Assembly (NCBI GenBank): GCA_035544735.1
Contig: DATKCD010000013.1
Span: 3,412 to 67,411 of the forward strand
Length of the DNA stretch: 64,000 nt
From: Thermoanaerobaculia bacterium
GTDB taxonomy: Bacteria; Acidobacteriota; Thermoanaerobaculia; Gp7-AA8
Direction of reading: 5' to 3'
The notes under the pieces were generated by a model. That model saw nothing but the letters and a program-made list of their open reading frames with translations, was not told where the DNA came from and searched no databases. Positions 2,807-55,320 of the stretch are shown here, piece after piece (the stretch's first letter is position 1; the number at the start of each line of letters is the position of its first letter). Position numbers and translations under genes: made by a program.

Positions 2807-3257
2807 GGGTCAGTCCTCCTCGGGCCGCTCCATCGGAGCGGGCGGTGAGCTCCCGGGCGCTCGGGTCGCGCCGGGTCGGGCGATGATCGCGCGCCGGTCA
2901 GTGGTGAAGCGACCGGGTGCGATCACGCCATACGGCGGAAGACGGCCGCCGCCACGGAACGTGACGCCCTGGGCGCTTTCTCTCGAAGCAACGGACTCCG
3001 GTTCCCGGACGTGCAACATCGACCATGAGCATGAAACCCACCTCCCACCCGCGCCGTTCGGCGCGGAGACCACGAAGCTCGGGCAATGCAGCGCCACATC
3101 TCTCCCGGATCGACACGAAGAGCGTGAAAGGAAGGCGACGAAACGGGAGGTCGCTGGAGGAGCGGCAGGCGGCCCCTGCGAGTCCCGCCGGCTGCGGGAA
3201 CCAGCCACTCCCCCCCGAAGACGAATGCGAACGAATCGATGGATCTAGGATACACCC

Positions 3258-3512
3258 GTCTGGAGCGTCTGGAGCGTCTTGGGCGTCTGGAGCGTCTTGG
3301 GCGTCTTGGGCGTCTGGAGCGTCTTGGGCGTCTGGAGCGTCTTGGGCGTCTTGGATCGGTGATACGCCAGAGTCAGAATGCAGAATGCAGAATGCAGAAT
3401 GCAGAATGCAGAATGCAGAATGCAGAAAGATGCTGGCTCACCTCCGGACTTTCGCAACTCTTCAGACACTCCTTGACGCCCTGGACACTCGAGACGCCCG
3501 AGACGCCGCAGC
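3258..3512. repeat. Composite inverted tandem-repeat element A
   Basis: Direct array of the 9-bp unit GCGTCTKGR, about 11 copies (3258-3354). Then CAGAATG heptamer x7 plus CAGAAAG (3374-3429). Then about 4 reverse-complement 9-mers GACGCCNNG (3474-3512). The element ends at the stop codon of the anti-sigma gene. Confidence 0.85.
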
Positions 3513-3979
3513 TATTCGCCCGCGAGGGCGGTATGCACGGTGAGCAGGACGGTGGCGCAGCCGAGGGTGAAGACGGCGGCGAGCAGGGAGGGAGAGACCG
3601 AGGCTCCTTCGATCGCGGAAGCGACGGCCCGGTCGAGTGAGAAATTCGCAATGACGTCCCACTTCCACGTCAGCAGCGCCGCCCAGCAGAATGCGATTAC
3701 GCCGAATCCGACGCGCTGGAGCAGATGGAGCGGCTGGAGGACCTTCTGGTCGGAGATTCGGCTGCCGAACAGTTCCGCCTTGAGCCTCAGAATGCTCGGA
3801 TCGACCGGCGCCGGAGAGCGGGGAGCCTCCGAGGCCATCCGGTTCATCCAGACGGCGACCTTCGCCGCCTCGGAGCAGTCGGCGCACGACCGCGCGTGGT
3901 CGCGCAGCGAATCCGGCAGATCGCCGTGCTTCATCGCGCGGATCAGATCGAGCTCGAGATCGCATCCTTCCCTTCTCAC
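3512..3979 (-). CDS. Anti-sigma factor, zf-HC2 type, membrane-spanning
   Basis: 155 aa. H-x3-C-x2-C motif (HARSCADC) near the N-terminus and a C-terminal TM segment. GTG start overlaps the ECF sigma stop as GTGA. Confidence 0.65.
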   Translation of the reverse strand: MRREGCDLELDLIRAMKHGDLPDSLRDHARSCADCSEAAKVAVWMNRMASEAPRSPAPVDPSILRLKAELFGSRISDQKVLQPLHLLQRVGFGVIAFCWAALLTWKWDVIANFSLDRAVASAIEGASVSPSLLAAVFTLGCATVLLTVHTALAGE

Positions 3980-5757: not shown

Positions 5758-6429
5758 ATGCAACGCAACGACGACGATCTGCGAACGACCAGGCGCTACG
5801 CGTTCGCGACGCCGCTCCAGGCCGTGTTCGGCACCACGCCGATCGGGGTCCGAAACCTCGGATCATACGGGCTTCAGGCGGAGCACTCCGACCCGATCAA
5901 GCTGGGATCGAACGCCAGGATCGTGTTCGACATCCCTGCCGCGCGCGAGAAGATCGCCATTCGCGGCAGGCTCGTCTGGAGCCGTCTGTCGAAGACCCCG
6001 AACGAGAGGGGAAAGTATCTCTACCTGAGCGGGGTGCAGTTCGATGAATCCGCCCCATTCCCGCCTCAGGCCCTCGACACGCTCGTCCAGCTCGGCCTGG
6101 CGGTGCCGGACGACGATTCGCTCCAGAGAAAGCGCGACGAGCTCGCGCGCCGGCAGCAGGAGCGCTCGCAGGTCCGCGTCGTCCAAGTCCCTGCCGAAGA
6201 GCTCCCATCCGATCAGGCCCTGCTGGTCCAGCATGCGATCGCCCAGCTCCGCGGGAATCCCGACGAAGCGCAGAAGTGGTATCAGCGCGCCCGCTTTTCT
6301 CCTCCCGTGGTCGACGGCAAGCCGCTCCCCTATCGCGAAGACGTCGTCGCCATCTGGGAGTATCTGGGGCGCACGATCGCCATCGACGTCGTCGCCCGGG
6401 TCCTCGAGCGCGACCGAGCCCCGGAGTAG
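5758..6429 (+). CDS. PilZ-domain protein (putative c-di-GMP receptor)
   Basis: Start refined to MQRNDDDL. RR...R then NLGSYG about 20 aa later, and a GVQF..L-like end of the domain. Confidence 0.5.
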   Translation: MQRNDDDLRTTRRYAFATPLQAVFGTTPIGVRNLGSYGLQAEHSDPIKLGSNARIVFDIPAAREKIAIRGRLVWSRLSKTPNERGKYLYLSGVQFDESAPFPPQALDTLVQLGLAVPDDDSLQRKRDELARRQQERSQVRVVQVPAEELPSDQALLVQHAIAQLRGNPDEAQKWYQRARFSPPVVDGKPLPYREDVVAIWEYLGRTIAIDVVARVLERDRAPE

Positions 6430-6669
6430 CCGGGGCGTCTGGAGCGTCTGGAGCGTCTAGGGCGTCTTGGGCGTCTTGGGCGTCTAGGGCGTCTCGGGCG
6501 TCTTGGGCGTCTTGGGCGTCTTGGGCGTCTTGGGCGCTCGTCAATAGAACGCGGGACGTAGCAGGTAGAACGTAGAGAGCCTGACGGATCCGCAGACGAT
6601 CTGGACGCCGCAGACGCCGACGCTCCAGACGCTCCAGACGCTCGAGACGCCCTAGACGCCCTAGACGCC
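6430..6669. repeat. Inverted 9-bp tandem-repeat element B
   Basis: Forward GCGTCTNGN array of about 12 copies (6433-6536). Loop with TAGAACG x3. Reverse-complement array of about 8 copies (6596-6669). It spans exactly from the PilZ-gene stop to the murB stop, and the last unit CTAGACGCC contains the murB stop. Confidence 0.85.
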
Positions 6670-19894: not shown

Positions 19895-20445
19895 CGCCGC
19901 TTCGCGGCAAATGCAGAATGCAAAATGTAAAAGAGTGTCGCGATAGTTCGGGCGGTCAGTGCGCTCCCGAATGATCATGACCCGGAAGGCTTCTCACGGA
20001 ATCGGGGGCCGAGTCGTAGGAGTCCGCCGGCCGCAAGGCCGGCCCCTCTCCCGGTGGGAGAGGGTGCCGAGCGAAGCGAGGCGGGTGAGGGGCGCGGGCG
20101 GTGACGGAGTGACCGTACGCACGACGGACGAAGCGGAGCAACTGCGCGCGCCGCGAGCTTCGCGCGAGGCGAGCGGGCGGAGAATCCCCTCACCCGCCTG
20201 CGCCTCCCTTCGGTCGGCTCCGGCACCCTCTCCCAGAGGGAGAGGGGCGTCTCGCGCAGCCTGAGCCGAGTGCGAAAGGGACCTCATGCCACGGAGTCAG
20301 ATCGAGAAGGCGCTGCGCATGCGCGGACGTGCCGAGGCGAAGGAAAGTCATCACACTCGAGCGCGCTGACCGCCGGGAACCAGCGTGACGTCCTTTTACA
20401 TTTTGCATTTTGCATTCTGCATTCTGCATTTGCCGCGAAGCGGCG
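19895..20445. repeat. MITE-like element E
   Basis: Left end CGCCGCTTCGCGGCAAATGCAGAATGCAAAATGTAAAAG. The right end is its reverse complement with two extra heptamer units. The core has nested palindromes: CCCTCTCCCGGTGGGAGAGGG(TGCC) at 20040-20065 pairs with (GGCA)CCCTCTCCCAGAGGGAGAGGG at 20222-20250, and GCGAGGCGGGTGAGGGGCG pairs with CGCCCCTCACCCGCCTGCGC. No plausible ORF inside. Confidence 0.7.
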
Positions 20446-26202: not shown

Positions 26203-26715
26203 ATGCTTCGGGCCCGGGATGAAGAGATCGGACGCACGCCCGAGCTGGTGATCGCGACCCTGACCGACGCGCGCGAGGCCGACACGGCCCGCGCGGCGCT
26301 CGGCTCGGCCGGAATCGCGGCGCGCGTCACCACCATCGCCACTCCGAAGCTCGGAGCCGGCGGCGAGCGCGTCGACGTCAGGTTCGGCGTCTCCGTCGCA
26401 CCCCACGACGCCCGCCACGCCATCGAGATCCTCCACGCGCGCCTCACCTCGACCGACGGCGACGCCATCGAGCTCGATCTCGACGAGCCCCTCGAGCCTC
26501 CCCGCCACGTCCGTTGTCCCGAATGCGAATCCGAACAGGTCAGAACCACCTCGACCGTCATCGGCGCCCTTCTCGGCGCCGCCGTCCTCGCCGCCGTCGG
26601 CTGGGCCATCGGTCAGGAAGACGTCTTCTACCTCGCCGCCGTCATCGTCGCCCTCATCCTGGTCCTCGGTCCCAACCGCCGATGCCTCCAGTGCGGCCAT
26701 CGCTGGATGGAGTAG
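26203..26715 (+). CDS. DUF2007-like protein with C-terminal TM segment and Cys4 zinc-ribbon
   Basis: 170 aa. CPECES...CLQCGH. Confidence 0.5.
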   Translation: MLRARDEEIGRTPELVIATLTDAREADTARAALGSAGIAARVTTIATPKLGAGGERVDVRFGVSVAPHDARHAIEILHARLTSTDGDAIELDLDEPLEPPRHVRCPECESEQVRTTSTVIGALLGAAVLAAVGWAIGQEDVFYLAAVIVALILVLGPNRRCLQCGHRWME

Positions 26716-27144
26716 GAGCGTCTGGGGCGTCTGGAGCGTCTGGGGCGTCTGGAGCGTCTTGTGCGTCTAGGGCGTCTTGTGCGTCTTGGGCGTCTTGTGC
26801 GTCTCGGGCGTCTTGTGCGTCTAGGGCGTCTTGTGCGTCTTGTGCGTCTTGAGCGTCTAGGGCGTCTTGTGCGTCTTGAGCGTCTGGAGCGTCTAGGGCG
26901 TCTTGTGCGTCTTGAGCGTCTTGAGCGTCTGGAGCGTCTGGAGCGTTTTGAGCGTCTGGAGCGTCTGGACCATCTTGGGCGTCTGGCGCGGCACGGCCCG
27001 GTGCAGGTGAATCGATTCCAGACGCACGAGGAGCACGAGGCGCCCCAGACCCCCTAGACGCACAAGACGCTCTAGACGCTCTAGACGCCCTAGACGCCCT
27101 AGACGCCCTAGACGCACAAGACGCACAAGACGCTCAAGACGCCC
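26716..27144. repeat. Inverted 9-bp tandem-repeat element C (largest copy)
   Basis: About 30 direct GCGTCTNGN units (26716-26990). 60-bp spacer. About 10 reverse-complement units (27050-27144). Runs from the DUF2007 stop to the terC stop. Confidence 0.9.
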
Positions 27145-40000: not shown

Positions 40001-40112
40001 GCGAAGGATCCTCGGCGAGCTCTTCGAGCGCGCGCCAGTACTCCGGGGCGTTCTCCCCCGAGAGTCGCGCGCCGAAGGCGGCGAGATCGAGATGTCGTCG
40101 TCCTGTGGTCAT
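37086..40112 (-). CDS. actB: Alternative complex III subunit ActB (molybdopterin-oxidoreductase-like domain + 4Fe-4S ferredoxin domain)
   Basis: 1008 aa. Tat signal RRDFLRLMGASVAMGGLAA. Multiple CxxCxxCxxxCP clusters in the C-terminal third. Confidence 0.9.
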   Translation of the reverse strand: MTTGRRHLDLAAFGARLSGENAPEYWRALEELAEDPSLHEVLREELARESAATGEGVDRRDFLRLMGASVAMGGLAACTPPAETIVPWVDAPEQLVPGRPLFYASAMELDGVGAGVLVESHMGRPTKIEGNPDHPGSLGATDHFAQASILSLYDPERSGTVRYTGDVSTWAAFVSALQATLQTLRGSGGEGLRVLTEGMSSPTAGSQMREILQRYPAAAWHTWQPVTRDSVLEGSRLAFGRPLQTVRHFGGADVVLALDSDFLAREPGFVRYTRDFMDRRRVRAGAATMNRLYVAESMPTPTGTMADHRVAIPAGEIETLARAIAGEIGVGTRVDAGARSAWAEAVARDLRAHPGRSIVLAGENQPPAVHAIVHAINAALGNAGRTVHYIEPVEANPVNQGESMRRLATDMRAGRVRALLILGGNPAFTAPADLEFARAMDFVPFRVHLGTYYDETSARSHWHVPATHFLEAWSDTRACDGTVSIVQPLIRPLYNGASVHEILAALNEDIRTGHEIVRDFWRERARTGADFDATWNRWLHDGVIPDSALPPVSAPASGAIPAAAPRGAAGIEVVLRPDPMIHDGRFANNSWLQELPKPVTKLTWDNAALMSPATASVLKVANGDVIEIEAGGRTVQAPVWSVPAHADDSITLDYGYGALRTGEVGRGTGTDVYPFRTLAGGDIVRGVTVRKTGRRVRLATVQMHHELAWELADGAGARRNIVRSGTLDRYRENPEFLRVPGLEIKGGPSLYPEWPYETYAWGMVIDTNVCTGCGICTIACQAENSIPVVGKEQVLVGREMHWIRTDHYYKGDPNDPDIGMYNVPIPCMHCENAPCEPVCPVEATSHSDEGINEMTYNRCVGTRYCANNCPYKVRRFNFLSYADFETESYKAMRNPDVTVRSRGVMEKCTYCIQRINEHRIEAEKDGRRIRDGEFTTACAQACPTRAIRFGDLNDSDSDVARLRAEPLNYGMLTELNTQPRTSYLGALKNPNPELARRAAPASSTEPAE

Positions 40113-40155
40113 CGTCGGTCCAGAATCGAATCGCGCGGCGCGGCCCGCGCAGTCA

Positions 40156-40800
40156 TCAGTAATGGCAGATCGAGCAGTTGGTCTTCGAGCGGATCCCGTA
40201 GTCGCGGACGAGTCGTGGCCCGATCTCGTCCTGATCTTCCGGTTCCCACGTCATGTCGAACACCTTGTCACGGGGGCGGACGAACTCTTCGGGAGCGCGG
40301 TGGCATTCGAGGCACCACGACATCGACAGAGGCTTCTCCTGCCAGACCAGAGGCATCTGGTCGACGCGGCCGTGGCAGGAAACGCAGCCGATTCCCTTCT
40401 GGATGTGAATGCCGTGGTTGAAATGGACGAACTCCGGGAGCCTGTGGACGCGCTGCCAGCGGATCGGCTCGCCCTCGCGCAGGCTCGCCCGGACCGGCTC
40501 GAGCATCGCGGCGCCGGTCCAGATCTGCTTGTGGCAGTTCATGCAGGTGGCGGTCGGAGGTATCCCGGCGAACGAGGAGGTCTCGACGGAGGTATGGCAA
40601 TAACGACAGTCGATTCCGAGGCCGCTGACGTGGTGCTCGTGGCTGAATGGGACGGGCTGAGTCACCACGTCGCGCTGCCCCGTCGCGAACGGCGAGCGGT
40701 TCAACTGATACACGAACCACAGCGCGAACGCGACCAGGAAGACCGCGCCGAAGATGCTGAATCGAGAAAGCGTATTGGCGCTACGATGGAAGACTTGCAT
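40156..40800 (-). CDS. actA: Alternative complex III pentaheme cytochrome c subunit ActA
   Basis: 214 aa. N-terminal TM anchor. Five CxxCH motifs (CRYCH, CMNCH, CVSCH, CLECH, CSICH). Confidence 0.9.
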   Translation of the reverse strand: MQVFHRSANTLSRFSIFGAVFLVAFALWFVYQLNRSPFATGQRDVVTQPVPFSHEHHVSGLGIDCRYCHTSVETSSFAGIPPTATCMNCHKQIWTGAAMLEPVRASLREGEPIRWQRVHRLPEFVHFNHGIHIQKGIGCVSCHGRVDQMPLVWQEKPLSMSWCLECHRAPEEFVRPRDKVFDMTWEPEDQDEIGPRLVRDYGIRSKTNCSICHY

Positions 40801-41096
40801 TTCACGGATTCGGCCCTCGGAGCTCGCGGAGAGTGCGGGAGCGGCCGCGCCCGTAAGGCGGCGCTTACCCTACTCCGAACGACCGGGTTTGTCGAGTGTC
40901 GCGAGACGCGAAACGGCGCCCGTCATTCGCTCGTTCGCGAGCCATCAACTATCCGAAGTCCGCTCCCCGAGTCAATAGATTCGTCGTGCGCGCCGCCATC
41001 CTCGCCGTCCCTCTTACGATCGTGCATCAGGACCGCGTCTGGTCTGAATTCCGGCAGGAAGAGCGAACCTCCGGCCGTGTGTCGGCTCACGGCGGC

Positions 41097-43529
41097 TCAC
41101 TCGATGCCGCGCTCGCCGCGGATCCGCTCGGCGAGCTGCTCGATGTGGAGCGAGATCCGCTCCTTTCGGAGGCGCTCGGCGCGCTCGAGCTCGTCCTCGG
41201 AGGCTCCGGGAAAGGCTCGGCCGAGCGGACTCATCTGACGCGCGAGAAGGACGAAGTTCTTCAGCCACGAGAGGTCGCGATCGATGAGCCGCCCGCTCTC
41301 GTACTCGACCGCCGGAAGGTCATCGACGTGGGGCTCGACTCCTTCGGTCATCGCCGCGACGCCTGCGGCGTCGACCAGAAGCATGCTCGCGAGGTCGATC
41401 TCGTTCTCGACGCCGATCGGCTCGAGCTCGGCGGCGATCTCACCTTCGAGTCTCGCTGCGACGCGGTCGAGCGGGATCGGCCCCTGCTCGAGGCGTCCCA
41501 GAATGATCGTGAACGAGTTCGAGACATTCGGCACGTACCAGATGCTCGCGTCGGGAAACACGTCGCGGAACGCGCGCAGGATCATCAGGTAGTTGCGCTC
41601 GGTGAGGGAGTACATCGGAAGCCACATCGAGATCACGCCGTCGGGGCTCAGCCTCTCGCGGCAGAGCTCGAAGTAATCCTTCGTGTACAGCGATCCGTTG
41701 CCGGCATAGCGGGGATGGATCGAGTCGGAGAGGAGGACGTCGAACGACTCCCGGCTGGCGAGGACGAAGTTGCGCCCGTCGTTGATCTCGACGCGGACGC
41801 GCGGGTCGTCGAGCACCCCGTTGTTGACTTCCCGAAGCATGGAGCTCGAGACCTCGATCACTTCCGGCGAGATCTCGGCGACGACGATCTCCTCGACGGG
41901 ATGGCGGGAGACCGCCCAGGCGGTGCCGCCGCTGCCGAAGCCGATGTGAAGAACCTTCTTCGGCTCGGGATGGATCAGCAGCGGCAGATGACCCTGGAGC
42001 TTCTGCGTCCCGATGAGCTCGGGCGAGGTTCCGGCGACGTTGACGCCGTTGAGCTCGAGAGAGAGGACCTCGGGGCCGAGACGGCGCAGCGTGACCGTGG
42101 CGGAGACGTCCTCGCGGAACAGGAGCACGGGCGCCCGGGCGTCGACGAACAGTCCCGCCGACAGGATGACCTGATCGGGGCGGGCCAGAACGAACGAGAG
42201 ACCGACGGCGCCGACCGCGGCGGCCGCGGTGGCGAGCGCCGCCGCCCCCCGCTCTCTTCCCCGAACGAGGAACCAGAGCCCGATCACGAGATTGATCGCG
42301 GCCATGAGGAACAGGCCGTTCTGCGATCCGAGCAGCCGGATCAGGACGAAGCCGGCGAGCAGCGATCCCGCGATGCTTCCGAGGGTGTTGGCGAAGTAGA
42401 TCACGCCGACCGAGCGCGCCTCACTCCGCTCCGCAGCGAGGCTGTAGATCTTGACCACGACCGGGAAGGTCGCCCCCATCAGTACCGTCGGAATCAGGAG
42501 CGCCGAGAGAACGGCGACCAGCAGCGTCACCAGAGTGCCGAACTGACCGGAGGCCCCGACGGTGCGGGCGATCGCTTCGAGCACGTCGGCGAATCGGGTG
42601 AAGTAGTGGATCTGGGCGGCCAGGGCGGCGGCGAGCGCGAGCTCGAGGATCGCGAGCAGCCTCTCGAGTCGCGCCCGCTCGATGATCCGGTAGACCAGCG
42701 CGCTGCCGATCGCGAGGCCGATGAGGAAACAGAACAGCATCAGCGCGTACGCGTAGACGCTGCTTCCGAGGTGGAGCACCAGAATCCGCGACCAGAACAC
42801 CTCGTCGGCGATCGAGCTGAGGCCCATGAAGAAGGCCGCCACCACCGCCGCCCACGCCGCGATCGGACCCGCCGAAGACTCCTCGAGCGAGGGAGGCTCC
42901 ACCGGCAGGTTCGATCGCGAGGTCCACGCCAGAAACGTCGAGAACGCCGCCAGCCCGAAATTGAGTGCCACCGCGATCCCGATCGTCGCCGTCAGCCCGA
43001 CCGTCGGGATGAGCCAGAACCCCGCGAGCGCCACTCCCGCCGTCGCTCCGAAGGTGTTCGCCGCGTACAGCGACGACACGGCGCGGCCGCTCGCGAGGCG
43101 CTCGCCCGAGAAAAAGCGGACCAGCACCGGCAGAGTCCCTCCCATCAGGACCGTCGGCGGGAGCAGAAACAGCGACGCGGCTCCGATCCGGAACAGGGTC
43201 AGCAGCAGCGGCTGGTCCCCGATCGAGGGATGCGCCGTCACGTAGAGCCGGTCGAGCAGCTCGAATGCATTGGACGAGAACGCGCCGATCGCGCCGATCA
43301 CCGCTTCGAGCACGGCATACAGCACCAGCGGCCGCACGCGATGGAAAAAGCGGCCGAACAGGTATCCGCCGATTCCGAGACCCGCGAGGAAGATCGCGAT
43401 CAGCGTCGCCGCCGCGTGGACCGTGTTTCCGAAGACCAGACCGAGATATTTGAGCCAGGAGATCTGATAGAGGAGGGCGCTGAGACCGGAAACGAAGAAC
43501 ACGCCGAGAACCACGCCTCTGGCCCGCAT
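41097..43529 (-). CDS. Fused polytopic membrane domain (two MFS-like halves) + spermidine-synthase-like domain + C-terminal helical tail
   Basis: Start refined to MRARGVVLGVFF. LHIGFGSGGTAWA...VAEISPEVIEV...DGRNFVLAS...FDVLLSDS. Paralogue of 10000-11601. Confidence 0.8.
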   Translation of the reverse strand: MRARGVVLGVFFVSGLSALLYQISWLKYLGLVFGNTVHAAATLIAIFLAGLGIGGYLFGRFFHRVRPLVLYAVLEAVIGAIGAFSSNAFELLDRLYVTAHPSIGDQPLLLTLFRIGAASLFLLPPTVLMGGTLPVLVRFFSGERLASGRAVSSLYAANTFGATAGVALAGFWLIPTVGLTATIGIAVALNFGLAAFSTFLAWTSRSNLPVEPPSLEESSAGPIAAWAAVVAAFFMGLSSIADEVFWSRILVLHLGSSVYAYALMLFCFLIGLAIGSALVYRIIERARLERLLAILELALAAALAAQIHYFTRFADVLEAIARTVGASGQFGTLVTLLVAVLSALLIPTVLMGATFPVVVKIYSLAAERSEARSVGVIYFANTLGSIAGSLLAGFVLIRLLGSQNGLFLMAAINLVIGLWFLVRGRERGAAALATAAAAVGAVGLSFVLARPDQVILSAGLFVDARAPVLLFREDVSATVTLRRLGPEVLSLELNGVNVAGTSPELIGTQKLQGHLPLLIHPEPKKVLHIGFGSGGTAWAVSRHPVEEIVVAEISPEVIEVSSSMLREVNNGVLDDPRVRVEINDGRNFVLASRESFDVLLSDSIHPRYAGNGSLYTKDYFELCRERLSPDGVISMWLPMYSLTERNYLMILRAFRDVFPDASIWYVPNVSNSFTIILGRLEQGPIPLDRVAARLEGEIAAELEPIGVENEIDLASMLLVDAAGVAAMTEGVEPHVDDLPAVEYESGRLIDRDLSWLKNFVLLARQMSPLGRAFPGASEDELERAERLRKERISLHIEQLAERIRGERGIE

Positions 43530-43649
43530 GCGCCGATTGTAACCGGTTTGTCCGCGCCGCCGGCTCGACCGCGGGCCGCGAATCGCGTTCCACCGCTCCC
43601 GACTCCGATCTATGATCCGCTGCACCGGAGCCCGGAGCCGCCTGCCGCC

Positions 43650-44342
43650 ATGCTCAACCGCTACCATCTCGATGCCGCACTGGAGCCCGGAACGTCGGTC
43701 GTTCTCGAAGGGGACGAGCACCATCACGCCGTGCGCGTGCACCGCGTCCGTGAGGGGGAGGGAGTCGAGCTGTTCGACGGGCGGGGGATTGCGGTCCTCG
43801 CCCGGATCGAATCGATCGGCCCGCGCTCGCTCGGCCTGTCGATCGAATCGCGGATCGTTGAACCGCGCGAGCCGCGGTTGGAGCTCGAGCTCGCCGTCGC
43901 TCTGATCCATCCGGACCGGCTCGAGCTCGTGCTGCAGAAGGCGACCGAGATCGGAGTCGCCTCGTTCCAGCCGATCACGACTTCACGAACCGAGGTCCGA
44001 CCCGAGCGCGTGCTCGGCAGGTCCGAGCGCTGGGCGAAGATCGTGCTCGAGGCGGTCAAACAGTCCGGGAGGTCGGTCATCCCGCGGCTGGAGCCGGTGA
44101 TTCCCCTCGAGCAGGCGCTCGCCCGTCCCGGCGTCAACGTGATCCTCGATCCGAGCGGCGAGTCCTCCCCTCCGCCGGCCGCTTCGGTCCGGCTGTTCGT
44201 CGGACCGGAGGGAGGATGGAGCGAAGAGGAGCTCGACGCCGCGCGCCGCATGGGCGCCCACTCCTGGTCGCTCGGGCACCGGCGCCTGCGCGCGGAAACC
44301 GCGGCGATCGCCGGCGCGGCCCTCCTCCTGCTGCACGAGTGA
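43650..44342 (+). CDS. rsmE: 16S rRNA (uracil1498-N3)-methyltransferase
   Basis: Start refined to MLNRYHL. PUA-like N-domain and SPOUT C-domain (GPEGGWSEEE). The 1148-aa listed ORF is an artefact. Confidence 0.8.
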   Translation: MLNRYHLDAALEPGTSVVLEGDEHHHAVRVHRVREGEGVELFDGRGIAVLARIESIGPRSLGLSIESRIVEPREPRLELELAVALIHPDRLELVLQKATEIGVASFQPITTSRTEVRPERVLGRSERWAKIVLEAVKQSGRSVIPRLEPVIPLEQALARPGVNVILDPSGESSPPPAASVRLFVGPEGGWSEEELDAARRMGAHSWSLGHRRLRAETAAIAGAALLLLHE

Positions 44343-44422
44343 AGCGCTCCCCCTCTCCGGACCGGCATCGCTCGAATCAGCAATCGCGCGCTGCGGAAAA
44401 GAAAGCAGCATGCGCTCTGCGA

Positions 44423-45292
44423 TCAGTTTTCCGACGCACGGCGCGCTCCCTCCGCTCCGAGCACCCCGCACCACCACTCTCCTTTCGATGCCTCTTCGAC
44501 GACGTTCAGTCCGGTGAGCCGTGCGGCGGCGACGACTTCGTCGCGGTACGGAAGCATGATCCCGCTCACGATCGCCCGTCCGCCGGAGGCGAGCATGGCG
44601 GCGAGGCGGGGAAGATTGGGGACGATCACGTCGGGCAGGATGTTCATCGTCACGAGATCGAAGCGGGCGGAGGGGGCGAGGGCGTCGATCGGCCCGATGA
44701 AGAATTCGATCCGGCCCGGGGGGACCTGGTTGCGCTCGAGGTTCTTCGGGACGATCTCCCACGTCACGGGATCGTCGTCGAAGGCGAAGACGCGCGCGGC
44801 GCCGAGACGGAACATCCCGATCGCGAGGATTCCACTCCCCGTTCCGACGTCGAGACCGCGGCGCTCGACCATCTCGATCGTCTCGAGCATCTCGAGGCAG
44901 AGCGCAGTCGACTCGTGCGAGCCCGTCCCGAACGCCCGCTCCTGAGGAATTACGATCGGATCGCGTCCCGGCTCGCGCGGCAGCAGCGAAGCGTCCGGAG
45001 CCACCACGAACCGCCGGCCGATGAAGAGCGGCTCGAGCGACTGCCGGTACAGCTCCAGCCAGTCCTTCCGTTCGCGGTCCTGCTCCTCGAGCTCCAGCCC
45101 CTCGACCTCTCCCAGCACGGCGCGCGCTTCGGCACGCTCCTCCGCCGAGTCGAACCAGCACGCCACGACCGTCCGCCCTCCCCGCTCCCCGATCTCGCAC
45201 CCGCGGCAGCTCGTCAGGAACAGCAGCCCCTCCACGCGATCATCGAGATCCGTCCGCGGCTCGTAGACGATCTCGAGAACAAAGTCGCGCAT
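44423..45292 (-). CDS. prmA: Ribosomal protein L11 methyltransferase
   Basis: Start refined to MRDFVLEI. SAM motif LDVGTGSGILAI and TMNIL. The upstream part of the listed ORF (KTLKTLKT...) is a translated repeat. Confidence 0.85.
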   Translation of the reverse strand: MRDFVLEIVYEPRTDLDDRVEGLLFLTSCRGCEIGERGGRTVVACWFDSAEERAEARAVLGEVEGLELEEQDRERKDWLELYRQSLEPLFIGRRFVVAPDASLLPREPGRDPIVIPQERAFGTGSHESTALCLEMLETIEMVERRGLDVGTGSGILAIGMFRLGAARVFAFDDDPVTWEIVPKNLERNQVPPGRIEFFIGPIDALAPSARFDLVTMNILPDVIVPNLPRLAAMLASGGRAIVSGIMLPYRDEVVAAARLTGLNVVEEASKGEWWCGVLGAEGARRASEN

Positions 45293-45738
45293 GGGCGTCT
45301 TGGGCGTCTTGGGCGTCTTGGGCGTCCTGGGCGTCTGGAGCGTCCTGGGCGTCTTGGGCGTCTTGAGCGTCTTGAGCGTCTTGAGCGTCTTGAGCGTCTT
45401 GAGCGTCTTGAGCGTCGAGTATCGATTCACGTCGAAGATCCGGACCGTCCCCTGCCGTCGGCCGCACCGGGTCGGCCCGAGAGCCCGAGGAGTGAGGAGC
45501 AGGATCGTTCTATCTTCTACGTTCTACGTTCTACGTTCTATGTTCTGCGTTCAAGAAGATCTACAGAGGCTCCAGACGCTCCAGACGCTCCAGACGCTCC
45601 AGACGCTCCAGACGCTCCAGACGCTCCAGACGCTCCAGACGCCCTAGACGCTCCAGACGCCCTAGACGCCCTAGACGCCCTAGACGCTCAAGACGCCCTA
45701 GACGCTCCAGACGCCCTGGACGCCCAAGACGCTCAAGA
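45293..45738. repeat. Inverted 9-bp tandem-repeat element D
   Basis: About 14 direct GCGTCTNGN units (45293-45416). Unique spacer. ACGTTCT-type heptamer x5-6 (45511-45556). About 19 reverse-complement units (45565-45738) that cover the dnaJ stop. Confidence 0.9.
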
Positions 45739-46857
45739 GTCGGTGCCGGTGAAGAACTTCTTCGCTTTCCGGAAGACATTCGGCTCGGGGATTTCTTCTC
45801 CCTCGAGCTTCGCGTACTCCTCGAGGAGCTCGCGCTGACGCCCTTCGACCGAGGTCGGAATCTGGACGGTCACGTGGACGTAGTGATCGCCGCGGCCGCT
45901 GCCGTCGATCCACGGAACGCCCTTCCCCCGGATGCGGAAGATCTGGCTCGGCTGGGTTCCCGGGGGGATCCTGAGCGTCTCCGGGCCGTGAACGGTCTGG
46001 ACGGAGAGCTCGGCGCCGAGGGCTGCGCGCGTGAACGTGAGCGGCTCCTCGGAGTGAATGTCGTAGTCGCGCCGGGTGAACCGCGGATGCTCCTCGACGG
46101 AGATGAAGACGTAGAGGTCTCCCTGAGGGCCTCCGTTGGTTCCGGCCTCGCCTTCCGCGGCGAGGCGTAGGCGGGTGCCGTCGTCGACGCCGGGAGGGAT
46201 CTTGACGGTGATGCCCTTCTGCTCGCGGACGCGGCCGGCGCCGCCGCAGTCGGCGCAGGCGTCGGTGATCACGCGCCCGCTGCCGCCGCACTGGGGACAG
46301 GTGCGGGCGACGGCGAGAAAGCCCTGCGAGTACCGAACCTGTCCGCGGCCGCCGCAGAGGGTGCAGGGGGTCGGAGAAGTCCCCGGCTTCGCACCCGAGC
46401 CGCCGCACGGGGCGCAGGTTGCGGCGCGAGGGACTTCGATCCGGACGTCCTTGCCGAAGACGGCGTCCTCGAAGGCGAGACCGAGATCGTATCGGAGGTC
46501 GGCGCCCCGCATGGCGCGGGTGCCGCGCCGGCGACCTCCGCCGAACAGATCGCCGAAGCCGAACAGGTCGCCGAGGATGTCGGCGAAATCGGTGAACTGA
46601 GAGGGGTCGAAGCCGACGCCGGCGCCGAGGCCGCCGTGGCCGAACCGGTCGTATTTCGACCGCTTGTCGGCGTCGGAAAGGACGGCGTACGCCTCGGCGG
46701 CCTCCTTGAACTTCTCCTCGGCTGTCGCGTCTCCGGGGTTCTTGTCCGGGTGAAACTGGACGGCGAGGCGGCGGTAGGCCTTCTTGATCTGATCGACCGA
46801 GGCGTCGCGGGAAACGCCGAGAACCTCGTAATAGTCTCTTTTCTCGATTGTGGCCAT
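45733..46857 (-). CDS. dnaJ: Chaperone DnaJ
   Basis: J-domain HPD (HPDKNP). G/F region. Four CxxCxGxG zinc-finger repeats. Confidence 0.95.
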
Positions 46858-46870
46858 CGGGGATTCTGGT

Positions 46871-48703
46871 TCACTCCACGACGGGGGGCTGGGTCTTGAG
46901 CGGGTTGTAGAGCATGACGGTGGTCAGGATGCGCGAGGCATTCTGGAGCTCGAAGATGGCGTCGTTGATCGCGTTTCTCTGTTCGCTCGTGACGGCCGCC
47001 TTGCCGGCGTTGATGGCCTTCTGGACCTTGTCGCGGTCTTCATCCGGGAGGAGTTTGCCGAACTCGCGGAAGACTTTCTCGTTGGTGTAGACCATCCCCT
47101 CGAGCTTGTTCTGGAGCTGGCGGATCTCGCGGCGCTCCTGGTCGGCGCGGGAGTGCTCCTGGGCTTCGTTGATGATGCGATCGATCTCGTCCTGAGTCAG
47201 ACCGCCGGCGGGATTGATCTGGACGCCCTGCTGCTGGCCGGTGGCCTGGTCGCGTGCGGTCACGTGCACGATGCCGTTCGAATCGATCGAGAAGGTGACC
47301 TCGATCTGGGGAACGCCGCGGGGTGCCGGAGGGATTCCGACCAGATCGAACTTGCCGAGGGATTTGTTCTCGCGGGAGAACTCGCGCTCGCCCTGCAGGA
47401 CGTGGATCTGCACCTTGTTCTGGTTCTCGGCGACGGTGGTGAAGATGAGGGAGTTCTTGGTCGGAATGGTGGCGTTGCGCTCGATGATCTTCGCGAACAG
47501 CCCGCCGTGGGTCTCGATGCCGAGCGAGAGGGGCGTGACGTCGAGCAGGACCATGTCCTTGATGTCGCCCCGGAGGATCGCCCCCTGCACGGCGGCTCCA
47601 ACCGCCACGACCTCGTCGGGATTGATGTTCCGGTTCGGATCCTTGCCGAAGACCCCTTTGACCGCTTCGATGACCTTCGGCATGCGCGTCTGCCCCCCGA
47701 CCAGGACGACCTCGTCGATCTGACTGGGGGAGAGGGCGGCGGCTTCGAGCGCGTTGCGGACCGGGTCGATCGTCTTCTGAATGAGGTCGTCGACCATCCG
47801 CTCGAACTCGGCGCGGCCCAGGACGCGGTTCAGATGCTTCGGACCCGACTGATCGGCGGAGATGAACGGCAGCGTGATGCGCGTTTCCTCGACCTGCGAG
47901 AGCTCACACTTCGCCTTTTCCGCCGCCTCCTTCAGCCGCTGCAGGGCCATCCGATCGTCGCGCAGATCGATCCCCGCTTCCCGTTGGAATCCCTCGATCA
48001 GCCAGTCGATGATCCGCTTGTCGAAGTCCTCCCCGCCGAGATAGGTGTCGCCGGAGGTCGAGAGCACCTCGAACAGACCGTCCTCGAGCTTCAGGATCGA
48101 GATGTCGAACGTTCCCCCGCCGAGGTCGTAGACGGCGATGATCTGATTCTTCTTGTTGTCGAGCCCGTAGGCGAGTGCGGCCGCGGTCGGCTCGTTGATG
48201 ATCCGGAGCACTTCGAGCCCCGCGATCCGCCCGGCATCGCGCGTGGCCTGCCTCTGGGAGTCGTTGAAGTAGGCGGGAACGGTGATGATCGTCTCCGTGA
48301 TCGCCTCGCCGAGGAACTCCTCGGCGAATGCCCGGATCTCCATCAGGACGAAGGCCGACACTTCCTCGGGCGAGAATTCGCGTTCGCGGATCTTGACCTT
48401 GATGTCGCCGTTGGACGCCGACACCACCTGGTAGGGAAGGACCTGCTTGGCGCGCGAGACTTCCTCGGTGTCGAATTTGCGGCCGATCAGGCGCTTGATC
48501 GCATAGACCGTATTGAACGGATTGGTGATCGCCTGGCGCTTCGCGATCTGTCCGACCAGACGCTCCCCGTCCTCGGTGAATCCGACCACCGAGGGGGTGG
48601 TCCGACTTCCCTCGCGGTTCGGTACGACCTGCGGAGTCGACACGTCGACTACGGCGACGCAGGAGTTCGTGGTGCCGAGATCGATTCCGATGATCTTCCC
48701 CAT
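46871..48703 (-). CDS. dnaK: Chaperone DnaK (Hsp70)
   Basis: Start refined to [39 protein letters not shown]. Confidence 0.97.
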
Positions 48704-48710
48704 GCAATCC

Positions 48711-49364
48711 TCAGGACGGCTCCCCGCCCTCTGTCTCACCACTCCTCGGAGCCGCCGAGACCTTCACGAGCGCCGGTCGCAGCAGCCGGTCGTGCAACAG
48801 ATACCCCTTCTGGAGTACGTCGATCACACGATTCGGCTCCACTTCGTCGGTCTCTTCGCGGGCGATTGCCTCATGGTACGACGGATCGAACGGTTGTCCA
48901 GCGGGATCGTTCGAGCTGAGCCCCGCCCGGGCCAGCACGTCCGCAAGCTGCCTCTGGATCATCTCGACTCCCGTCCGGAAGTCATCGGCCGCCCCTCCCT
49001 CCACCGCGAGTGCCCGCTCGAGATTGTCGAGCACGGGCAGCAGTTCCCGGAGCGTGTCGGCCAGCGCGTAACGGCGGAACTCGCTCCGCTCCCGCTCGGC
49101 CCGTTTTCTGTAATTCTCCAGGTCGGCCCGTGTGCGGAGCAACTGGTCGCGCAGCTTCTCGCTTTCCGCCCGAACGGACTCGGCTCCGCCGCCCGCACCG
49201 CGCCCGGAACCGGCGGGCGGCGAGCTCGAATCCTCCTCACCGACCGGAACCGGGGCCTCCCGATAGCCGGCGAGCTCCTGAACCTCGTCGAGATCGCCGC
49301 TGTCGTCGATGACGTAAATGTCCTCGTCGCCGGAAACGTCGTCCGGCTCTTTTCGATCGCTCAC
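48711..49364 (-). CDS. grpE: Nucleotide exchange factor GrpE
   Basis: 217 aa. GrpE coiled-coil and beta domain. GTG start overlapping the hrcA stop as GTGA. Confidence 0.88.
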   Translation of the reverse strand: MSDRKEPDDVSGDEDIYVIDDSGDLDEVQELAGYREAPVPVGEEDSSSPPAGSGRGAGGGAESVRAESEKLRDQLLRTRADLENYRKRAERERSEFRRYALADTLRELLPVLDNLERALAVEGGAADDFRTGVEMIQRQLADVLARAGLSSNDPAGQPFDPSYHEAIAREETDEVEPNRVIDVLQKGYLLHDRLLRPALVKVSAAPRSGETEGGEPS

Positions 49365-50443
49365 GGTACGCTCTCCCCGGATGATTCCTCGATCTTACGA
49401 CCGAGCGCCTTGCCGAGGTACTCGACCAGCGGAAGGACCCGGCTGTATTCCATCCTCGTGGGTCCAATGACGGCGACCAGGCCCGCCGGCTGAATCATGC
49501 CGTAGCTGGTGGCCACGAGCGCGAAGTTGTAGCTGCCGGTGAACGGGCTTTCCGATCCGACCACGACCTGGAGGCCTTCCTCACCGAGACAGTGATTCAG
49601 GATCTGAACCAGCTTCTCCTTCTCTTCGAACGCGCGGAGGACCTTGCGCATGGCCTCGCCGTCGGCGCTCGCGAACTCCGGCTTGCTCAGGATCGAGCTC
49701 GCCCCTTCGACCCAGATCTCGTGCTCGGACGGAAGGAGCTCTTCGACCGCGCCGGCGCCGACCGCGAGCGTACGCCGCCACATCCGATCGAATCGGGCGC
49801 GCTCCTCGCGCATCAGCGTCACGAGCCGCTCGCGGATCTGAGCCAGGGTCAGCCCGACGAACTCGGCCGACAGATGACGGCCGATCCCCTCGGCTTCCTC
49901 CCGCGTGAGGACGTCGTCGATCTCGATCACCCGGTTCACGACCACGCCGTTGGTGGCGACGATCACGACCATCAGCCGCCGCTCGGCCACCAGGATCAGA
50001 TCGATGCTCCTCATCGCGATGTGCCGGAGGGTCGGCATGAACACCAGACCGACCTGATCGCTCAGCTTCGAGAGCAGGCGCGAAGTCATGTGCATCACGT
50101 CGTCGAGCTCGCCGATCTTCGCCACCTCGCCGTCGATCACTTCCCGCTCGTGCGAGGTCAGCCGTCGCGATCGCATCAGGTGATTGATGAAGAACCGGTA
50201 CCCTCGGTCGGTCGGAACCCGGCCCGCCGAGGTGTGCGGCTGATGGAGATAGCCGAGGTCTTCCAGATCCGCCATCACGTTGCGCAACGAAGCCGGCGAC
50301 AACTGGAACGCTCCCGACTTCGCGAGCGTCCGCGAGCTGACCGGCTCGCCGCTCGACACGTAGATCCGGACGACCTCGCGCAGGACCTCGCGCAGCCGGC
50401 TCTCGAGCTCGTCCCCGTTCGATTCCTGGCGATAGTTCGGCAT
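49361..50443 (-). CDS. hrcA: Heat-inducible transcription repressor HrcA
   Basis: Start refined to MPNYRQES. N-terminal wHTH EPVSSRTLA. HrcA C-domain. Confidence 0.9.
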   Translation of the reverse strand: MPNYRQESNGDELESRLREVLREVVRIYVSSGEPVSSRTLAKSGAFQLSPASLRNVMADLEDLGYLHQPHTSAGRVPTDRGYRFFINHLMRSRRLTSHEREVIDGEVAKIGELDDVMHMTSRLLSKLSDQVGLVFMPTLRHIAMRSIDLILVAERRLMVVIVATNGVVVNRVIEIDDVLTREEAEGIGRHLSAEFVGLTLAQIRERLVTLMREERARFDRMWRRTLAVGAGAVEELLPSEHEIWVEGASSILSKPEFASADGEAMRKVLRAFEEKEKLVQILNHCLGEEGLQVVVGSESPFTGSYNFALVATSYGMIQPAGLVAVIGPTRMEYSRVLPLVEYLGKALGRKIEESSGESVP

Positions 50444-50448
50444 CGGCG

Positions 50449-50475
50449 TTAGCACTCCTCCGCACTGAGTGCCAA
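50449..50475. promoter_or_regulatory. CIRCE operator (HrcA binding site)
   Basis: TTAGCACTC-ctccgcact-GAGTGCCAA. 17 of 18 match to TTAGCACTC-N9-GAGTGCTAA. Lies 6 nt upstream of the hrcA ATG. Confidence 0.85.
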
Positions 50476-50502
50476 ACTACCCGGGCGGCGGGGTGCTGTC
50501 AA
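50474..50502 (-). promoter_or_regulatory. Sigma-70-type promoter of the hrcA operon
   Basis: Minus strand reads TTGACA-17 nt-TAGTTT. The -10 overlaps the distal CIRCE half-site. Confidence 0.5.
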
Positions 50503-50640
50503 GGTGAACGATCTTCGGGCTTTACCTCATTCCGCCCCGCGGCAGGCTCCGTGCAACCCCCCGGACGAGCGCCAGAGCCGCCCGCCCCCGTGATTCCTCT
50601 TCTCACGGCGGGCAAAATCGGCTTTACTGGGGCCGCCGCC

Positions 50641-51285
50641 ATGAACGACCGCCTCCGGCTCGTCCCGCTCCTCCTCGCCCTGCTCACTCCGCCGTCCCTC
50701 GAGGCCGAGATCATCGACCGGATCGCGGCGCTGATCGATCGGCAGGTGATCACCCTCAGCGAAGTCAACCAGGTGGTCGAGATCCGCCTGCGCGCCCCCC
50801 GGCAGGGGGAGGACGAGGGGGAATATCGCCGGCGCGTGCTCGACGCCATGGTCGCGCACACCCTGCGCTACCGCGACGTCGAGCGCTTCGGGGCGGCGGA
50901 CGTCCCGGCGGACTCGATCGAGTCGCGGCTACGCGAGATCATCGCCCGGTTCCCCTCGGAGGAGGCGTTCACCGATACCCTGCTCCGCGTCGAGCTCACG
51001 CTCGACGAAGTGCGCGCTCTGATCAAGCGGCAGCTCCAGGTCCAGGCCTACGTCGACGAGCGGTTCGCGCCGATGATCTTCGTGTCGATCGAGGAGATCG
51101 AGTCGTATTACCGCGAGACCTGGGCGCCGCAGCGCCAGGAGCGCGGCCTTCGCGTCCCCCCGCTGGCAGAAGTCTCGGAGGAGATCCGGCGCCTGGTGCG
51201 CGCCGACCGTCTCCAGGACGAGATCGACCGCTGGACCGAGCAGCTCCGCGCCCGCGCCAACGTCGACATCTTCGTCTACCGGTGA
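50641..51285 (+). CDS. SurA-N-domain-like periplasmic chaperone (no PPIase domain)
   Basis: Start refined to MNDRLRLVPLLLALL (signal peptide). Helical SurA N-terminal-type composition. Confidence 0.45.
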   Translation: MNDRLRLVPLLLALLTPPSLEAEIIDRIAALIDRQVITLSEVNQVVEIRLRAPRQGEDEGEYRRRVLDAMVAHTLRYRDVERFGAADVPADSIESRLREIIARFPSEEAFTDTLLRVELTLDEVRALIKRQLQVQAYVDERFAPMIFVSIEEIESYYRETWAPQRQERGLRVPPLAEVSEEIRRLVRADRLQDEIDRWTEQLRARANVDIFVYR

Positions 51286-51372
51286 TCCGCCCGCCCCGGT
51301 GTGGTCGGGCGTCCCGACCGCCCCCGGGTGGGTGGCTGCGCCGAACCCGGTGTGATCATCGGGAGAGCGCCC

Positions 51373-51510
51373 TCCGGGCAAATGCAAAATGCACAATGCA
51401 AAATAATGCAAAATGGACAATCCAAAAAGGAGCCGACGACCCTCGACCGTCGCCGACCGATTCTGGCTGCTTCTCTTTGGATTGTGCATCGTGCAGTTTG
51501 CATTCGGCCG
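51373..51510. repeat. Heptamer-array hairpin element F
   Basis: Left arm CCTCCGGGCAAATGCAAAATGCACAATGCAAAATAATGCAAAATGGACAATCCAAAAAG. Right arm is its imperfect reverse complement (CTTTGGATTGTGCATCGTGCAGTTTGCATTCGGCCGGAGG). 37-bp loop. Confidence 0.75.
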
Positions 51511-51551
51511 GAGGCCCGCACGACTACGCCGCCGGCTCTCTGCGGGAGGTC

Positions 51552-52028
51552 CTACCTGCGCTCCTCGAGCAGAGCCATCGTGTTTCCCTCCGTGTCGCGG
51601 AACAGCGCGAGCCAGAGCTGGTGATCGGACATCTCCGCCACCATGCGCGGCGCCTCCACGAACGTCACTCCGGCCGCCGCGAGGCGCTCGTGCACCGCCT
51701 CGATCGATTCGGTGCGGAAATAGAGGATCGACGAATGATGCTCCTGCTCCGGCTTTTCCGCCACGCCCAGCAGCAGCCGGATGCCTCCGACCTCGAAGAA
51801 AGCCATCTGCGGAGGAGCGTCGAAAAGAAACGGAATGCCGAGAACGTCGCGATAGAAAGTCCTCGCACGATCGAGATCGCGCACGGTGATCGCGATCTGC
51901 CGGACTCCCAGGATGTCGGTGCTCGCCGCCATGGCAACCTCCCTGGCCGATCGATCGGGGAGCGCCGGACCGTCGGCCGAAGCCACGGCGCCCGTGAACA
52001 ACATGGACGCGACCAGAATCACTTTCAT
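51552..52028 (-). CDS. Secreted VOC-family (glyoxalase-fold) protein
   Basis: Start refined to MKVILVASMLF (signal peptide). VOC beta-alpha-beta modules. Confidence 0.6.
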   Translation of the reverse strand: MKVILVASMLFTGAVASADGPALPDRSAREVAMAASTDILGVRQIAITVRDLDRARTFYRDVLGIPFLFDAPPQMAFFEVGGIRLLLGVAEKPEQEHHSSILYFRTESIEAVHERLAAAGVTFVEAPRMVAEMSDHQLWLALFRDTEGNTMALLEERR

Positions 52029-52086
52029 GAATCGTCCTCCTCCGGCCCCGCCGGGCTGGTGACGATTCTCCGATCCCATTCACCGC

Positions 52087-52965: not shown

Positions 52966-53017
52966 GGCCGGAGTCTCGAACGCCGGAGCGGGATCGACTC
53001 GTCCGCCTCGACGCGCC

Positions 53018-53758: not shown

Positions 53759-53886
53759 GACGGACGTGCTCCCTGGCGAGGTAATTCGGATGTTGAGAAA
53801 CCGGGCTCGAAGAATACCATTCCCGTCGACGCCGGGCACCGCCGGCCTCCGGGGCGGTCTTTCCCCTTCCCCCCCGCCGGGCCCGG

Positions 53887-55218: not shown

Positions 55219-55320
55219 GACGTTCACGCCGGAGACATCATCGCATTCCGGAACGCCCCTCGACACGATGCCGTCTGCGCGCACCTCCTTCCCTGTCGCA
55301 CGCTTCGCCTCCGGACGCGA

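Follow-up and report, generated by a model that had tools for sequence, protein, structure and literature searches.

The 240-base intergenic element described here, hereafter element B, separates two convergent genes, murB and a PilZ-like gene, on contig DATKCD010000013.1 of a Thermoanaerobaculia bacterium (GenBank assembly GCA_035544735.1). It occupies the whole of the gap between them, stop codon to stop codon, and its last repeat unit encodes the stop of murB. I interpret element B as one copy of a lineage-specific Thermoanaerobaculia family of intergenic inverted simple-sequence arrays, which would give the two convergent transcripts a structured 3′ end in common, similar in role to repetitive extragenic palindromic (REP) sequences and bacterial interspersed mosaic elements (BIMEs); I hold this combined interpretation with moderate confidence. 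The window is the whole stretch of DNA analysed, 64,000 nucleotides long; coordinates are positions in it, and L-numbers designate related loci that were compared with it.

Anatomy of element B

Element B (6430–6669) consists of a left arm of GCGTCTNGR nonamers (11.6 copies), an irregular centre, and a right arm of six to eight YCNAGACGC units. Tandem Repeats Finder (TRF) reports a period of 9 in both arms, with 11.6 copies at 92% for 6433–6536 and 7.7 copies for 6604–6669. The features of the junction are as follows.

6427–6429, plus strand: TAG stop of the PilZ-like gene, ending the open reading frame (ORF) 5527/5758–6429
6430–6536: left arm of element B, partial unit CCGGG and 11 units GCGTCTNGR
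6537–6590: centre of element B, non-repeat, with TAGAACG twice
6591–6669: right arm of element B, degenerate inner units followed by six units YCNAGACGC, the last being CTAGACGCC (6661–6669)
6661–6663, minus strand: TAG stop of murB (CTA on the plus strand), inside the last unit CTAGACGCC

The original prediction, made from the letters of the DNA, had the element start directly after the PilZ-like TAG and end with the unit that holds the murB stop, and these coordinates are exact. The CCGGG at 6430–6434 resembles the tail of a partial unit, with the first perfect GCGTCT core at 6435, and the variable triplets of the left arm are GGA, AGG, TGG and CGG. The TAGAACG of the centre is the reverse complement of CGTTCTA, a heptamer that is arrayed in the centre of another element of the window (element D, below). 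A coding repeat was ruled out, since the NCBI MurB model (P0001, from a Thermoanaerobaculia MAG, a metagenome-assembled genome), which has the same end as the window MurB at 100% identity and coverage, and the signal from G+C content at third codon positions (GC3) both end at the array. The facing gene had been described as encoding a PilZ domain. A resemblance to Pfam PilZ is indeed found, but it is weak (E=0.0026, 18.5 bits) and falls under the 22.5-bit cut-off. The C-terminal tail of its product, RDRAPE, shows no conservation in orthologues.

A family of two-armed arrays

The window holds four such nonamer elements, all of identical polarity; the other three are listed here.

3257–3510: element A, left arm of 10.9 units, centre CAGAATG x7.7, right arm decayed; located between an anti-sigma stop (3512–3514) and a conserved leader
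26716–27144: element C, 31 and 14 units around a 20-nt centre, from a TAG (26713–26715) to the terC stop (27134–27136)
45293–45738: element D, 14 and 19 units, centre CGTTCTA x6.7, from the dnaJ stop (45733–45735) to the prmA ATG (45290–45292); both genes on the minus strand

Outside the four arrays, GCGTCT and AGACGC occur as 21 singles each, which is approximately the frequency estimated from base composition. A scan of species-representative genomes was made with a three-unit pattern, and the two-armed architecture is present in the Thermoanaerobaculia MAG M3-S_maxbin2.bin.118, at 12 loci, and in the Acidobacteriota MAG MFD03899.bin.2.39, at five loci. The GCGTCT arm precedes the AGACGC arm in all four window copies and in at least 12 copies in the related MAG loci, and no copy with the reversed order was found among the Acidobacteriota loci. 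The smallest form, L094, has 4.5 units, a GGCC loop and 4.5 units, while composite centres hold a ∼150-nt GTCATCCTGA...TCAGGATGAC palindromic module (in either orientation), heptamer arrays (A, L102) or a terminator-like hairpin with T-runs (L055). An assembly artefact was ruled out, as the same architecture is found in independent assemblies with conserved synteny.

A scan of metagenome contigs with a four-unit pattern gave 102 loci, none of them two-armed, and most of those inspected were coding or solo arrays from other organisms. An Rfam search of the window and nine related loci at the gathering threshold found only tRNAs, a full-text literature search for the nonamer unit and the GTCATCCTGAG module gave nothing relevant, and exact-sequence look-ups of the window MurB, PrmA and TerC identified no other assembly. 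Scan hits in Symploca sp. SIO2E9 were rejected as family members, because they belong to an unrelated miniature inverted-repeat transposable element (MITE) with GGGTGARCGAAA... ends and a central direct GCGTCTGGA array. The direct array of this Symploca MITE (GGGTGARCGAAA...TTTCGCTCACCC; L019, L043, L082, L098, L099 and others) has the same GCGTCTGGA as the nonamer of the window, which is probably a coincidence. The nonamer GCGTCTGGA also resembles the DNA uptake sequence (DUS) of Neisseria, GCCGTCTGAA; a DUS-like role was rejected, since by the base-composition estimate the hexamer is not enriched outside the arrays.

Fit of the arrays to stop and start codons

To describe how the arrays meet coding sequence, I considered every array edge, in the window and the related loci, into which a clearly coding ORF reads (GC3 >= 0.78, and a G+C content at second codon positions, GC2, <= 0.60). 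At 21 of the 22 entered edges the stop codon is positioned between −13 and +15 nt relative to the first unit, with offsets of −2, −3, −4, +5, +6, +14 and +15. Genes reading into the arrays always meet the GCGTCTNGR orientation, and two of the three frames in which they can enter the unit contain a stop, TGA or TAG. Proteins read in the frame GCG TCT NNN stop at a unit of the TGA variant, either the first or the second (terC, L028, L079, L077); for those read in the frame GC GTC TNG, the stop comes from a TAG variant (murB, L079, L028, L081, L090). The third frame is open (Arg-Leu-Gly/Glu), and the gene's own stop is then found 2–8 nt ahead of the first core, often as TA-GCGTCT with the G in common (L059, L066, L096, L103). 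Among array-adjacent stops, TAG accounts for 12/21, against 7/38 of the other stops in the window (Fisher p=0.0036).

Stop-to-stop fit is a property of the whole family and, judged by these flush edges and by the near-background frequency of the hexamer elsewhere, exceeds what chance would give. The same fit had been predicted at element C, where the array does indeed abut the TAG at 26713–26715 and terC ends inside the last unit, although the name DUF2007 given to the gene on the left of C could not be retained: no such match was found at E<=0.01, and only a weak match to DUF5325 was obtained. The proposal that the elements exactly occupy convergent 3′ junctions holds as to the flush fit, but convergence is not a general rule: several copies (element D, L006, L211–L213) run from stop to start between genes on the same strand. 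At element D, the prmA ATG comes directly after ...AAGACGCCC, where a recognisable Shine-Dalgarno sequence is not seen.

C-terminal residues supplied by the repeat

On the minus strand, murB ends GGC GGC GTC TAG (Gly-Gly-Val-stop), of which CTAGACGCC supplies the Val and, as had been predicted, the stop. I compared this tail with those of 118 MurB homologues that retain the PEPxxx motif. Their tails are 0–20 residues long, 49 of the 118 end exactly at ...GF (the modal form being ...NFIGF-stop), and the GFGGV end is found on this contig only. An alignment of the MurB C-terminus had been set beforehand as a check on whether its end is drawn from the repeat, with differing ends in the orthologues counted as a refutation; differing ends are, on the contrary, what such a derivation predicts, and they do not speak against it.

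A similar situation is found next to two other elements. DnaJ ends ...KKFFTGTDA-stop in three relatives but ...TGTDS-stop in the window, where the terminal GAC TCT TGA matches the unit GCGTCTTGA at 7/9 positions, and TerC ends G-A-S-stop, from GGG GCG TCT TGA. From these comparisons, the arrays extend into dispensable C-terminal tails and provide the stop. For annotation, C-terminal residues and stops beside such arrays are best taken as lineage-specific.

Orthologous junctions in relatives

Synteny around murB is kept in relatives with ∼67–71% MurB identity, and the content of the junction between murB and the PilZ-like gene varies widely among them. The gap measures 14 nt in L214, and 138 nt of unique sequence in L105. 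In L106 and L107, GCAGAAG/CTTCTGC heptamer arms surround a GTCATCC module, stop to stop, and in L216, GTTCTTC/GAAGAAC heptamer arms surround a (CCCGSG)n array. In L215, the murB side carries CTGAGTG x6, with the murB TGA within the first unit, and three GCGTCTNGR units come directly after the TAG of the facing gene. Since the junctions of relatives are empty, mixed in their arms or filled by other units, this site is a hot spot at which repeats arise and turn over, and the hairpin is dispensable there.

The element had also been proposed to insert into terminator hairpins, and this found no support in the relatives. In the unoccupied junctions of L214 and L105 there is no sign of an ancestral terminator hairpin (both have folding z-scores near 0), and where a canonical terminator-like hairpin is present (L055; window 51431–51458), it is central, with the arrays outside it.

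In contrast to this turnover, the junction between dnaJ and prmA is occupied in five lineages (the window, L213, L055, L211 and L212), with PrmA identities to the window of 60–63%. The periods of the two arms are 9/9 in the window and L213, and 8/8 in L211 and L212 (GTCTAGGA with AGACCCCT); in L055 the contig ends inside the element, and the one arm available also has period 9. Within the window, the variant GCGTCTTGT (triplet TGT) is private to C, where both arms contain it. Change in the two arms is thus coupled.

At element A, the neighbouring leader begins 2–16 nt after the same anti-sigma stop in L105 and L106, which suggests that A was added at the stop and did not arise by the remodelling of a spacer. 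By presence and absence, A is missing from L105 and L106, and B from L105 and L214, with the relatives, at only ∼70% MurB identity, being too distant for single events to be resolved.

Predicted folding

Element B is predicted to fold with −163.7 and −142.6 kcal/mol on its two strands (z −9.7 and −8.5), so that a GC-rich stem-loop is expected on both. The corresponding values are −299 kcal/mol (z −15.7) for D and −298 kcal/mol (z −14.5) for C. Pairing is possible at 8/9 unit positions in any register, position 7 being the variable one. These predicted hairpins, together with the co-varying arms, fit a selected structure at 3′ ends. A consensus terminator scan gave no site at 6430–6669, and element B, with no U-tract after the stem, is not a canonical intrinsic terminator.

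A proposed shared structured 3′ end, and its alternatives

With its layout of 5′-(GCGTCTNGR)n, variable centre, (YCNAGACGC)m-3′, the element reads as the same kind of structure on either strand, so that each of the convergent transcripts would carry the same long imperfect hairpin from its stop onwards. If the element is transcribed and the hairpin forms in vivo, its most likely role would be that common structured end, acting as a barrier to read-through into the facing gene as well as a block to 3′-to-5′ exonucleases; REP/BIME elements and the U-less 'I-shaped' hairpins are thought to act likewise. A terminator or insulator role is plausible. In the same-strand copies, the base of the stem would bring the stop of the upstream gene close beside the start of the downstream one. 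The unit number may be altered by replication slippage, while arm-to-arm exchange, or selection for pairing, would maintain complementary arms. The flush fit would arise if the array takes all DNA that is free of coding constraint, the stops built into the unit helping to make it exact. Where an array encroaches on a dispensable tail, the protein would be re-terminated within one or two units, because TGA or TAG is met in two of the three frames; in the third, the gene's own stop would be as close as possible.

A number of observations weigh against this shared 3′ end. No U-tract is found 3′ of the stem of B (GCCGAAUCCGA follows on the plus strand and CGGCUACUCCGG on the minus strand), so termination there would have to be non-canonical, and the window shows no excess of canonical terminator-like sites over chance. 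Within B, C and D, the two arms bear no unit-by-unit mirror relation to each other, and they are unequal in units (11 vs 6–8 in B, 31 vs 14 in C, 14 vs 19 in D). The L214 and L105 junctions are unstructured when compared with shuffled sequences. The hairpin is also not strictly needed for the flush fit, since the two arms of L215, with their different units, do not pair (z ∼0), and since solo nonamer arrays without inverted partner, of the CCAAGACGC or GCGTCTYGA type, span convergent gaps stop-to-stop in two unrelated high-GC metagenome contigs (L126 6750–6900, L172 1120–1195). Finally, quasi-palindrome template-switch and slippage mutagenesis are known processes, and the outward growth of the arrays is modelled on them; it was not observed here.

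The unlike arms of L215 and the solo arrays of L126 and L172, along with the same polarity in Xanthomonas, hint at another origin, in which the arrays are produced by a polar process tied to gene ends. Each stop would acquire its own sense-oriented array, and the hairpin would be a by-product wherever genes face each other, or a stop faces a start. In a functional version of this, the stem would be ribosome-gated, with the terminating ribosome melting the stem base and unmasking the downstream start (as might apply to dnaJ–prmA and to the heptamer element at 59225–59349, below). I consider this proposal, in both its forms together, quite unlikely.

Element B might instead be a non-autonomous MITE- or REPIN-like mobile element, whose terminal inverted repeats are arrays of a transposase-binding nonamer, with the enzyme encoded elsewhere and a preference for stop-adjacent sites or hairpins. 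Such an element would leave many dispersed copies with a common unit and a single polarity, as are seen both inside a genome and among at least three genomes, and A resembles a clean insertion relative to L105 and L106. Nesting is also seen, with the ∼150-nt GTCATCCTGA module central in either orientation, heptamers inside nonamer arms (A, L102), and the heptamer elements at 19895–20445 and 51380–51500 enclosed by older GC-rich inverted repeats; moreover, CGTC, by which one REP superfamily is tagged (PMC3733652), is present in every unit. However, neither a target-site duplication, a target motif nor a conserved terminus beyond the array was seen in the ∼23 outer flanks read, the arms are unequal in length and, in L215, heterologous, and no copy flanks a transposase-sized ORF at the loci examined (the window having been only partly screened for transposases). 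The copy between dnaJ and prmA is orthologous across deeply diverged lineages, and both its arms have switched period jointly, which points to vertical persistence. A mobile origin therefore seems unlikely.

The turnover at the murB junction, empty in L214 and L105 and filled with other units in L106/L107 (GCAGAAG), L216 (GTTCTTC) and L215, would imply rapid change and dispensability, as expected of a functionless self-expanding microsatellite that arose when a slippage-prone array underwent a harmless inverted duplication. The arms vary freely relative to each other in their number of units and in the order of variants, and the fit would reflect tiny ancestral gaps, growth within one of ∼14 nt being bounded by both stops. 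It is harder to explain in this way why the arms keep equal period and complementarity while diverging, why the dnaJ–prmA copy is retained at such PrmA distances, or why the polarity is constant among the Acidobacteriota loci. The outermost unit has an in-frame stop more often than the variant mix predicts, by an estimate made outside any formal test. Long near-palindromes are normally unstable in bacteria, so that their persistence suggests benefit or active maintenance. I thus regard the microsatellite explanation as doubtful.

A non-B DNA or RNA structure such as a G-quadruplex (G4), or a reiterated protein-binding site, could be the relevant feature instead of the hairpin. Matches to the canonical G4 motif (GGG, 6-nt loops) are present in the left arm of B, on the plus strand, and over a short part of D, the invariant hexamer with its variable triplet resembles a reiterated binding site, and the Xanthomonas arrays discussed below have been interpreted in this way (PMC4692102). 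Yet no canonical G4 motif is present in A, in C or on the minus strand of B (the murB-side arm), for which reason G4 was rejected as the common feature of the family. The common variants GGA, TGA and TGT interrupt the G-runs, the hexamer is not enriched outside the arrays by the base-composition estimate, and spacings of 9 and 8 bp are not helical repeats. Such an explanation is very improbable.

Comparison with known systems

Of the kinds of repeat described so far, the inverted intergenic heptamer arrays of Xanthomonas (Rehm et al. 2015, PMC4692102) come closest. These authors report intergenic tandem heptamers, GGGAATC in Xanthomonas and GGGGAYT in Nostoc, with 70–75 inverted ('convergent') array pairs per Xanthomonas genome that could form stem-loops. 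The arrays are biased to positions less than 50 bp from a stop, or overlapping it, on the sense strand, and are antisense upstream of ORFs; most are found between ORFs that are co-oriented or convergent, and they are transcribed and not associated with a transposase (PMC4692102). Like them, the elements of the window are head-to-tail intergenic arrays (6–9-nt unit, at least four copies) in inverted pairs, with the same polarity rule, and their edges agree with the placement of the Xanthomonas arrays within 50 bp of a stop on the sense strand. The window family differs in being a nonamer (an octamer in some relatives) from a different phylum, with much longer arrays of up to 31 units, and, with respect to the Xanthomonas arrays, in having edges at or inside stop or start codons, nested central repeats, and a G4 potential that is not conserved. 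Orthologous persistence and arm co-variation are features of the window family that the consulted sections of that paper do not describe for the Xanthomonas arrays.

REP, BIME and REPIN sequences are likewise high-copy extragenic hairpin-formers that are mostly found between convergent or co-oriented genes, and the capacity of REP inverted dimers to fold into larger hairpins has a parallel here. A REP unit, however, is a 20–40-nt palindrome with an unpaired GTAG/CGTC tag, whereas the window unit is a 9-nt non-palindrome with CGTC internal to every unit, and the window-family hairpin arises from two opposed tandem arrays. The family therefore does not belong with the REPs, its unit not being a tagged palindrome. 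No REP-associated tyrosine transposase (RAYT, of the IS200/IS605 type) flanked by repeats was found at the loci examined, the ORFs of the window having been only partly screened. Roles in transcription termination and mRNA stabilisation have been hypothesised for REPs (PMC3733652). The family shares with MITEs, such as the Correia elements of Neisseria, a short non-coding sequence with inverted ends, dispersed between genes. Correia elements can extend over the end of an ORF, and they can also act on transcripts. Unlike MITEs, the ends of the window family are defined by the repeat alone, arm length varies, and at least one site is orthologously persistent; membership also fails on the lack of any target-site duplication in the outer flanks. 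As for translation, Liang, Rudd and Deutscher are said to have found in 2015 that REPs within ∼15 nt of a stop affect the upstream gene.

Intrinsic terminators, including the U-less 'I-shaped' hairpins proposed for high-GC bacteria, are also GC-rich stem-loops directly downstream of stops, and can be common to convergent genes. The present elements cannot be counted among the canonical ones, as they have no U-tract, and their stems have 60–170 nt per arm as opposed to 5–15 bp. Intergenic tandem repeats are also represented by the MIRUs (mycobacterial interspersed repetitive units) of Mycobacterium tuberculosis and by the short tandemly repeated repetitive (STRR) heptamers of cyanobacteria. Like element D and the element at 59225–59349, MIRU units overlap the stop codon of one neighbouring operon gene and the start codon of the next, but they are 46–101-bp direct repeats with small ORFs and not inverted 9-mer arrays. 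STRRs are mostly described as direct arrays.

The 64 kb contain four nonamer elements and three or four heptamer ones, so that repeats of this kind take a sizeable share of the intergenic DNA. They reshape gene ends: in MurB, TerC and DnaJ the final codons and the stop come from the repeat, and a start codon is located inside one heptamer element. If the arrays define 3′ ends or couple neighbouring genes, they would be one of the main means of marking gene boundaries in a phylum where experimental genetics hardly exists, and a second independent case beside the unexplained heptamer arrays of Xanthomonas. The arm co-variation, combined with unit turnover at one junction, offers a tractable entry to the maintenance of long imperfect palindromes in bacteria.

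Other repeats and neighbouring features

An inverted heptamer element is located at 59224–59349, with ATTGATG x4.7 followed by CATCAAT/TCAATCA arrays, and outer ends AAGGCATT and AATGCCTT. It extends from inside an upstream TAA (59224–59226) to just past the ATG (59343–59345) of an amidohydrolase-like gene; because this ATG is inside the last repeat unit, the stem would sequester the start codon. At 19895–20445, inverted AATGCAR / YTGCATT heptamer arrays surround a ∼460-nt core with further CCCTCTCCC...GGGAGAGGG hairpins. A GC-rich inverted repeat (CGCCGCTTCGCGGC / GCCGCGAAGCGGCG) surrounds this element, as though an older hairpin had received it in its loop. The element is not flush with the flanking stops, from which it is separated by spacers of ∼40–50 nt. 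A decayed AATGCAA heptamer inverted pair is found at 51380–51500, with a central terminator-like hairpin (51431–51458) that has its T-run on the minus strand. This hairpin is one of the two longest-stemmed terminator-like sites that the scan gave for 40001–60000, and L055 shows the same arrangement. Heptamers are also nested within nonamer arms, as a perfect CAGAATG x7.7 at 3374–3427 in element A and as AATGCAG at 4090–4230 in L102, from another genome, and inverted AATGCAG arrays are present at the junction between prmA and a citrate synthase gene in L211–L213.

Beyond element A, a nominally non-coding 450-nt stretch on the minus strand (2807–3256) is conserved in L105 and L106. It contains a Shine-Dalgarno-like GGAGG followed by a short conserved ORF (∼2898–3032, MLMVDVARPGTGVRCFERKRPGRHVPWRR...), downstream of a sigma/anti-sigma pair.

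The ∼150-nt nested palindromic module (GTCATCCTGAGCGAGCG...GAAGGATCTCCTCAGC...GCTGAGGAGATCCTTC...CGCTCAGGATGAC) is absent from the window; in related genomes it forms the centre of tandem-array hairpins, in either orientation, at L059, L060, L066, L103, L028, L050, L106, L107, L211, L212 and L077. In L050, its GTCATCCTGA end appears to provide the TGA stop of a gene. Just outside the octamer arrays of L211 and L212, a GTAG-initial REP-like hairpin overlaps the dnaJ TAG (L211 2170–2195, GTAGCCGCG-TCA-CGCGGCTAC; L212 2142–2167, GTAGGCGCC-GCA-GGCGCCTAC).

Several contigs of related assemblies start or end inside nonamer arrays (L055, L060, L066, L090, L096), and many of the closest PrmA homologues (P0121–P0129) are on contigs barely longer than the gene, which suggests that the nonamer repeats fragment short-read assemblies.

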